Sequence record: PQ741806.1
Length of the DNA stretch: 64,000 nucleotides
Reading direction: 5' to 3' (one strand)
Origin: Pseudomonas phage Pa_AttikonH10
This document shows positions 37,055 through 37,358 of the stretch, in pieces. The position numbers were made by a program, and so were the translations under genes. Positions within the stretch are counted from its first letter, which is position 1; the number at the start of each line of letters is the position of its first letter. The notes below the pieces were generated by a model that made no database searches, was not told the DNA's origin, and was given only the letters and a program-made list of their open reading frames with translations.

Positions 37055-37358
37055 CGTTATGTTCAGGTAAGTTCGCTACGCTTACCCCGCCTCTCGTATT
37101 GCAGGCAGCTGCATGTCACCATGCAGACCAGACTATATCTTAACCTTCACCCTAGGTGGTCAGGTCCCTCCCATTTCCACTCGCTTGAGTGTACTCCGCG
37201 TAACCGGATAGTCGTTGAACGTTCAATCCATTTCTGGAAAGCTTCGCTGCTGATTGTCTCATTGAGATGTCCCAGCAATTAGAGAGGATTTACTTGACTC
37301 TTTCGAGATCAAGCAGGCAATTTGACAATATCCATTCCTGAGAGATGGATGGATATTA
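37055..37358 (-). mobile_element. Group I self-splicing intron (304 nt, ORF-less) interrupting the RNAP beta gene inside the GDKxxxRHGNKG motif.
   Basis: On the minus strand: P-like AAUUGCUGGGAC (37269..37280), Q-like AAUCAGCAGC (37246..37255), R GUUCAACGACUA (37209..37220), S AAGAUAUAGUCUGG (37128..37141). 5' exon ends ..HGGN with an AAU|UAA in-frame stop at the junction. Intron ends CUGAACAUAACG with a terminal G. Confidence 0.75.

Follow-up and report, generated by a model that had tools for sequence, protein, structure and literature searches.

Probable gene conversion of a P4-P6 domain between two group I introns in the RNA polymerase genes of a phiKZ-like phage

The DNA analyzed here, a stretch of 64,000 nucleotides (nt) from Pseudomonas phage Pa_AttikonH10 (PQ741806.1; the window), was assigned by megablast to the phiKZ species group of Pseudomonas jumbo phages. 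It contains exactly three group I introns, all on the minus strand (Rfam RF00028; threshold 50 bits), which interrupt the genes of the non-virion RNA polymerase. One intron lies in the beta gene (gp71/73 homologue) and two, called A and B, lie in the beta-prime gene (gp55 homologue, which encodes the beta-prime N-terminal subunit). The beta intron and intron A have a 75-nt stretch in common, and we regard a single ectopic gene conversion, in which the beta intron donated a short tract with its P4-P6 domain to intron A, as the likely source of this identity.

The beta intron (37055..37361, minus strand) and intron A (51783..52087, minus strand) are identical over an uninterrupted 75 nt, their longest exact match. 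It occupies 37207..37281 in the beta intron, the putative conversion donor, and 51950..52024 in intron A, where it delimits the maximal extent of the converted tract (both minus strand). In the Rfam alignment, as we read it, the stretch runs from J3/4 through P4, P5, P6 and J6/7 to the 5' strand of P7 and so takes in the entire P4-P6 domain. The identity of the two introns is 37% in the 5' part, 100% in the block, 49% from the block to P7', 100% in a P7'-P9 module of 34 nt and 74% in the 3' tail. Without the 75-nt block it amounts to about 57% over the whole intron, and several indels separate the two sequences outside the 75-nt and 34-nt blocks. An exact match of this length on so divergent a background lies far beyond chance. 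A preliminary description of this DNA had pointed out the 75-nt identity, the differing peripheral regions and the sharing of the P7-P9 region with intron B, and all three observations were reproduced. It had also deduced a recent intragenomic spread of the intron; a recent transfer between non-allelic sites is retained from this proposal, but only a patch of 47-75 nt, rather than a whole ORF-less intron (ORF, open reading frame), appears to have moved.

The decisive comparison is provided by the phages GUMS and Churi, whose intron A belongs to the same A2 type as that of the window, with the same 3' end, and contains an endonuclease gene. With the endonuclease insertion left out, intron A of GUMS and of the window could be compared over 285 nt. 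The two differ at 11 of the 285 positions, all inside 47 nt, and are identical in the other 238 nt; the chance of 11 differences clustering so tightly is about 1.6e-7. At 11/11 of these positions, intron A of the window has the base of the beta intron. The minimal converted tract, which holds all 11 differences in the alignment with GUMS, corresponds to nt 74-120 of intron A (51968..52014, minus strand). Two of the differences are located in the P4/P5 region and the other nine exchange the distal P6 hairpin for another stem, and the window-type and GUMS-type patches fold into the same P4-P5-P6 architecture. The unconverted GUMS ribozyme shows 75.5% identity to the beta intron over 251 nt. In both GUMS and Churi, which are 99.3% identical over the 285-nt ribozyme query, the unconverted intron A stands beside a normal beta intron in the same genome.

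All 11 aligned beta introns carry the patch variant, with or without the gp72 ORF; that of T2P has one substitution in it and that of PaZh_1 a gap of 29 nt, probably an artefact. They include the beta introns of phiKZ, PA7 and T2P, strains without intron A, and the patch is accordingly old in the beta intron and would precede intron A. The converted allele of intron A is also present in Bobae, PhiPizzaParty, PA_ZH1, kmuB, KEN19 and LC; the patch boundaries are identical in the four of these six phages that were aligned directly, and are deduced from sequence identity in the other two. Among 50,697 phage records searched by megablast, only GUMS and Churi carry the GUMS-type patch, and neither a donor of it nor further copies of either patch were detected in IMG/VR (exact pattern) or in JGI metagenomes (degenerate pattern). 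One diagnostic position (GG[A/G]AC) can be compared with the allelic A1 type of the intron, which agrees there with the GUMS type. A direction from beta into A is suggested by the failure to find a donor of the GUMS patch elsewhere and by the GUMS state of A1 at this one site. We propose that intron A received from the beta intron a copied tract of 47-75 nt that covers P4-P6, a domain able to fold independently, probably with the help of short conserved stretches (10-21 nt) flanking this domain, and that this happened in a single conversion in the lineage now represented by the window, Bobae, PhiPizzaParty, PA_ZH1, kmuB, KEN19 and LC. The chimeric intron A is presumably splicing-competent, since it resides in an essential gene of at least seven independently sequenced phages.

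A more far-reaching event had been envisaged in the preliminary description, namely that a whole ORF-less intron transposed lately from the beta into the beta-prime gene, by reverse splicing or with a trans-acting endonuclease, and that its periphery diverged afterwards. The core identity over 75 nt and 34 nt, the polymorphism of intron A, which is missing from phiKZ, PA7 and T2P, and the ORF-less state of the window introns speak for such an event. We nevertheless consider it highly improbable, because an identity of 37-74% between A and beta outside the blocks is incompatible with zero changes in 75 nt. Furthermore, the P1 guide sequences read by hand differ between the two introns: GCC pairs with GGU in the beta intron and GUUUC pairs with GAAAU in intron A. 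The alleles of GUMS and Churi contradict the transposition directly, as intron A equals the endonuclease-containing intron A of GUMS except for the patch and therefore has its own lineage and its own endonuclease. Transposition by reverse splicing is contradicted by the mosaic, in which the copy is not donor-like along its whole length, and according to a review no experiment has directly supported this type of mobility for group I introns (PMC3984707).

Purifying selection on the catalytic core could also be invoked, in which case the two introns would be old paralogues without recent exchange. The block does cover conserved core helices, and the P7-P9 module is truly conserved, with 95-97% identity across unrelated phages. 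Other phage introns, however, are only about 69-75% identical to the beta intron, this stretch included, and the identity of the 75-nt block extends to the loops L5 and L6. GUMS and Churi tolerate 11 changes, including a wholly different distal P6 stem, in the same intron at the same site. This tolerance of an alternative P4-P6 rules out purifying selection alone, and the distribution of differences (11 inside the patch, 0 outside) contradicts the idea as well, so that we regard it as very unlikely.

Scarcely credible is an assembly artefact, by which short-read assemblers would have swapped the repeat between the two loci. A record that might point in this direction is PaZh_1 (MN871489.1, flagged UNVERIFIED_ORG), in which the same 29 nt, inside the 75-nt block, are missing from both the beta intron and intron A. 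This gap is itself probably an assembly artefact at the repeat, because the loss would destroy P4-P5 in two essential genes. The allele of the window, on the other hand, is shared by several independent assemblies from different laboratories and countries, and the patch, with unique sequence on both flanks, does not reach the length of a sequencing read.

The polarity of the exchange deserves separate consideration. If the beta-like P4-P6 were ancestral in the A2 introns, GUMS and Churi would have gained a foreign P4-P6, perhaps together with the endonuclease gene. Such a scenario draws on the L1 hairpin common to the ORF-less forms of A2 and A1, on the confinement of the alternative patch to two closely related strains and on the perfect correlation of patch type with the presence of the endonuclease. 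It is unlikely all the same: the donor that it needs was not detected in the phage records, IMG/VR or the JGI metagenomes, the sister allele A1 has the GUMS state at the one comparable site, and an ancestral A2 intron identical to beta at 75/75 nt yet only about 57% identical elsewhere would call for a second exchange.

Several points weigh against a conversion of intron A by the beta intron as described above. Its direction rests on parsimony and one polarising site, and the patch of GUMS and Churi, close relatives that are the only known carriers of unconverted alleles, could be derived and stem from an unsampled intron. The beta-type patch occurs in all ORF-less A2 introns and in no endonuclease-carrying A2 intron, and the loss of the endonuclease and the conversion may be one event. 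The ORF-less L1 hairpin of intron A in the window is also found in the ORF-less A1 chimera of phage KEN49, which makes an ORF-less ancestral state of intron A conceivable. The donated sequence could also have come from a co-infecting phage and its beta intron instead of from the same genome. Finally, splicing of the chimeric intron A is presumed, and long reads of phiKZ are unspliced at the gp56 and gp72 introns (PMC10914365).

The second region of identity is of a different nature. The 34-nt P7(3')-P9 module, AAGAUAUAGUCUGGUCUGCAUGGUGACAUGCAGC, is identical in the beta intron (37108..37141), intron A (51835..51868) and intron B (51249..51282; all minus strand). The preliminary description had taken this identity as a further sign of recency, a view that does not hold. 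The high identity mentioned above extends over 34-37 nt of the module in the unrelated phages phi92, Salmonella STP4-a and Vibrio 1.084.O, so that conservation at the level of the intron family is evident and the module is weak evidence for a recent event. Two classes of P9 modules can be distinguished. Class I, CTGCATGG(T/C)GACATGCAG, is found in beta, A2 and window-type B introns, the B intron of T2P having the loop GGTAAC, and class II, TCTAG.GA.AGCTAGAG, is found in A1, in a further intron C and in phiKZ-type B introns, where A1 and B share a longer identical stretch. The B introns thus carry one of two modules, one identical to that of A1 and the other to that of beta and A2. The occurrence of two classes across sites can be taken as an indication of module exchange among phiKZ introns, a second one beside the P4-P6 patch.

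One may extend this thought and assume that P4-P6 and P9 modules of co-resident phiKZ polymerase introns are repeatedly homogenised in an ongoing, perhaps selected, concerted evolution. The two P9 classes fit this assumption, as does a GG(T/C)GAC loop variant that co-varies between introns A and B in Churi. If it were true, the shared modules might reflect a common splicing cofactor for beta and beta-prime introns, and splicing might be co-regulated so as to balance the subunits inside the phage nucleus. We consider this idea rather doubtful; homogenisation is not obligatory, since unconverted copies coexist in GUMS and in Churi.

All three introns of the window are devoid of an endonuclease gene and only remnants were detected by tblastn. 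A free-standing endonuclease, which the preliminary description had thought might act in trans, was not found either: no homologue of the five intron endonucleases is encoded elsewhere in the 64-kb window (tblastn). Reverse splicing is not needed, as each of the three sites has an allele with an HNH endonuclease in sister strains (gp72, gp56 and the HNH_3 proteins of 273 and 277 amino acids (aa)). The endonucleases of all sites are related HNH_3/NUMOD proteins, with amino acid identities of 73% between A1 and A2, 34% between A and gp56 and 27-29% between A and gp72. Each intron would spread in these strains with its own HNH endonuclease by homing between co-infecting phages. The ORF-less state is explained by such endonuclease-driven homing followed by loss of the endonuclease, and the mobility of the introns is thereby accounted for by ordinary homing and later endonuclease decay.

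Traces of these events are visible at each site. Intron B contains a 37-codon ORF (51533..51646, minus strand), a remnant of a gp56-type HNH protein of which the first 18 and the last 17 residues are kept; it bears the annotation "truncated HNH homing endonuclease" in sister strains, and its sequence clearly points to ORF loss by internal deletion. In phiKZ the beta intron holds the gp72 ORF in the loop of a stem; the window has a shorter form of this stem without the ORF, which was probably lost by deletion. For intron A, the direction of ORF gain or loss is ambiguous. Within 160 nt upstream of site A (window 52088-52250), 14 synonymous differences are common to five of the six strains with an endonuclease at this site, of both the A1 and the A2 type (the exons of OMKO1 lay outside the comparison), a pattern consistent with co-conversion during homing. 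The intron-less strain T2P has the flanking haplotype of the window but AAC in place of AAT at the junction of site A, which suggests a possibly cleavage-resistant empty site.

The occupancy of the three sites was deduced from 16 related genomes, of which Bobae, LC and KEN49 were covered in the beta-prime region only. Beta intron lengths given here refer to the originally assumed AAU junction; the corrected junction (see below) adds 3 nt to each. The beta site is occupied in 13/13 strains with the beta region extracted, and the Phikzvirus rows of the search listed each match in two pieces. An intron of 304 nt is found there in the window, PA_ZH1, KEN19 and kmuB, where it was scored as ORF-less, and in PA7, KTN4, SL2, ANB1, GUMS and Churi. 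The intron measures 310 nt in T2P and 1215 nt (1218 nt corrected), with the gp72 HNH ORF, in phiKZ and OMKO1.

Site A harbors an ORF-less intron of 305 nt in the window, Bobae, PA_ZH1, KEN19, kmuB and LC. It is occupied by the A1 type, which carries the ORF for the 273-aa HNH protein, in KTN4, SL2 and ANB1 (1244 nt each) and in OMKO1 (1250 nt), and by the A2 type (1194 nt, with the 277-aa HNH ORF) in GUMS and Churi. The site is empty in phiKZ, PA7 and T2P, where CGAAA(T/C) directly precedes CC(A/G)AC. As judged from megablast match spans, intron A is missing in about 26 of about 47 records of the phiKZ group (three verified directly, the rest inferred). Intron B is ORF-less with 493 nt in the window, Bobae, PA_ZH1 and KEN19 and with 497 nt in kmuB, and has 1372 nt with the gp56 HNH endonuclease in phiKZ, KTN4 and LC. 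Its length is 1389 nt in ANB1, 498 nt in GUMS, 495 nt in Churi, 484 nt in T2P and 481 nt in SL2. Site B is empty in PA7 and OMKO1, where CCA AAC is followed by GCA, with synonymous changes compared to occupied alleles; both strains have intron C.

Outside the genus, the beta and beta-prime genes are uninterrupted, among the matches listed, in PS119XW, phiHQ (66% aa identity), HHBS36_1 (71%), Psa21, Phabio and Viktualia. Together with the empty sites A (phiKZ, PA7, T2P) and B (PA7, OMKO1), this speaks against old vertical inheritance, in agreement with the preliminary description. The relatives do not all carry the same three introns with an exon-like divergence. Judging from these alleles, the phiKZ polymerase introns are young and polymorphic.

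Intron C is located 18 nt downstream of site B, between ADFDGD and QLNL, and measures 1524 nt in PA7 and OMKO1, with a large ORF (annotated with 345 aa in PA7). Introns B and C are mutually exclusive in most strains, a situation that resembles competing intron endonucleases. The gp55 gene of KEN49 (PP456877.1, 248678-252917, minus strand) contains three introns, A, B and C. Its ORF-less intron A (350 nt) is a chimera of an A2-type 5' hairpin and an A1 body, the endonuclease ORF of its intron B (1373 nt) is broken by a stop codon and its intron C (388 nt) is ORF-less. Between B and C lies a micro-exon of 18 nt, GCTGATTTTGACGGAGAT, which encodes only the catalytic ADFDGD motif.

Full-length matches to the RF00028 model were obtained for intron A (88.9 bits), the beta intron (84.2 bits) and intron B (79.0 bits), and all three belong to one IA2-type group I family. 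The beta intron, IA2-like, ORF-less and 307 nt long, splits the protein sequence between FHGG and KGV, as delimited by RF00028, homologues and PDB 7OGP. Intron A (ORF-less, 305 nt) separates FHRN from PTLQR according to RF00028 and the reading frames, and intron B (51182..51674, minus strand; 493 nt) splits the catalytic motif between N and ADFDGD, as deduced from the RF00028 core and the reading frames. As in the td intron of T4 and other IA2 phage introns, a P7.1/P7.2-type insertion that separates P7 from P3' was recognized in the Rfam alignment. Removal of the introns restores FHGGKGV, FHRNPTLQR and NADFDGD, as in uninterrupted homologues or alleles and in chains A and C of PDB 7OGP, which correspond to the spliced products.

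The beta intron had originally been placed at 37055..37358. Its 3' end, CUGAACAUAACG followed by the exon sequence AAGGGC, was correct, whereas the 5' junction had to be moved by 3 nt. The 5' splice site follows GGU, not AAU, and lies 3 nt upstream of the ORF end (37359-37361; GGU, then AAU UAA). This shift is required because three lines of evidence agree: the uninterrupted homologues of PS119XW and Psa21 read FHGGKGV, the deposited gp71-73 chain (PDB 7OGP chain C) reads FHGG-KGV, and in the corrected register, as read by hand, GGU with the following AAUU pairs with AAUU-GCC, so that P1 has its canonical U.G pair. A junction after AAU is ruled out by PS119XW, Psa21 and PDB 7OGP. It follows that the annotated gp71 homologues carry an extra C-terminal Asn. 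The earlier statement that all three target sites end in AAU consequently applies to A and B and fails for beta, whose target ends in GGU. Each intron follows a U of the 5' exon and terminates in G, the flanking exon triplets being GGU and AAG for beta, AAU and CCG for A and AAU and GCG for B. For beta and A, a P1 with a U.G pair was obtained by hand, and there are two candidate guide sequences for B. Long-read (ONT) sequencing of the phiKZ transcriptome did not reveal splicing of the gp56, gp72 and gp179 introns (PMC10914365). This absence of spliced reads conflicts with the spliced sequences of the chains in PDB 7OGP.

Introns with gp56, gp72 and gp179 were predicted in phiKZ in 2002 by Mesyanzhinov et al. 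(cited in PMC10914365). Two introns of the window, beta and B, are the same as in phiKZ and lie at the same sites, with identical or nearly identical ribozyme parts. They differ from those of phiKZ in having no endonuclease ORF, apart from the 18 + 17 residues kept in intron B, and the phiKZ reference genome is without intron A, FHRN and PTLQR being contiguous. Intron A, the ORF-less alleles, intron C and the exchange of P4-P6 are not mentioned in three publications (PMC10914365, PMC7598289, PMC11620839).

The life cycle of homing endonucleases comprises invasion, fixation, endonuclease decay and loss (PMC3984707; PMC2988022). Every stage is visible in the phiKZ strains, from empty sites over endonuclease-carrying introns to frame-disrupted (KEN49 B), internally deleted (window B) and ORF-less forms, and the clustered synonymous exon differences beside site A also fit co-conversion. 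That introns at different sites exchange ribozyme domains is not predicted by the cycle alone. A competitive role has been described for the gp210 intron endonuclease of PhiPA3, encoded in a virion RNA polymerase gene (Birkholz et al., 2024; PMC11620839). As in the phiKZ group, an HNH endonuclease sits there in a putative group I intron that splits a conserved catalytic motif of a jumbo-phage multisubunit polymerase; the polymerase (virion versus non-virion), the site and the phage are different. Without an endonuclease, the introns of the window cannot act as a competitive weapon of the PhiPA3 kind.

Similarity also extends to T4. Over its last 84 nt, the beta intron has about 80% identity to the td intron, whose host gene functions in nucleotide metabolism, unlike the RNA polymerase subunit genes interrupted in the window. 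By hand reading, the endonuclease ORF of the phiKZ group is placed in the P1 loop region, whereas that of td resides in P6. Domain shuffling among the td, nrdB and sunY introns of T4, with functional chimeras, was reportedly observed by Bryk and Belfort (Nature, 1990). Those events and the one in the window have in common a recombination between short conserved core elements of co-resident IA-type introns. The T4 cases were reportedly laboratory-selected crossovers that deleted the intervening DNA; the window, in contrast, shows a natural non-crossover patch that replaces P4-P6 and leaves intact the 14.7 kb by which the beta intron is separated from intron A.

The domain exchange adds a natural case to a type of intron evolution that is already known, and specialists in group I introns would not be surprised by it. 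Its value is that of an unusually clean case in which a group I intron swapped its independently folding P4-P6 with a paralogous intron and both parental states survive; it implies that phage ribozyme cores evolve by modular recombination besides point mutation. It also cautions that identity of intron cores is not evidence for the transposition of whole introns. The phiKZ non-virion polymerase genes emerge as places of fast intron and endonuclease turnover, with at least four insertion sites and several alleles at each. This bears on the annotation of these therapeutic and model phages, which are in wide use and in which the exons are usually called separate hypothetical proteins, and on endonuclease-mediated competition among nucleus-forming phages, for which the locus offers ample material on the turnover of introns and endonucleases.

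On the minus strand of the window, exon 1 of the beta gene occupies 37362..38555 and ends with CAU GGU GGU, and exon 2 occupies 36131..37054 and begins with AAG GGC GUC. By megablast, KTN4 and many other strains are 100% identical to the window in the beta region. The beta-prime gene consists of exon 1 (52088..53224), a short exon 2 of 36 codons between introns A and B (51675..51782) and exon 3 (50963..51181), which runs from ADFDGDQLNL through the stop codon (all minus strand); the beta-prime region checked matches phage Bobae at 100% (megablast).

Two kinds of repeats were noticed in addition. An AT-rich motif of 28-46 nt, the reverse complement of which includes TATATTAC, is repeated at 38666-38711, 43745-43790, 50841-50886, 55559-55604, 56208-56250 and 58316-58343. 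The copies at 38666, 50841, 55559 and 56208, which were compared with the ORFs, precede the start of an ORF or annotated gene on the minus strand, the beta gene and chmA among them, by about 20-110 nt, and the motif looks like a phiKZ promoter element. A repeat of 45 nt, 80% identical between 1355-1399 and 8400-8444, consists of a G+C-rich inverted repeat followed by a T-rich stretch and looks like a terminator.

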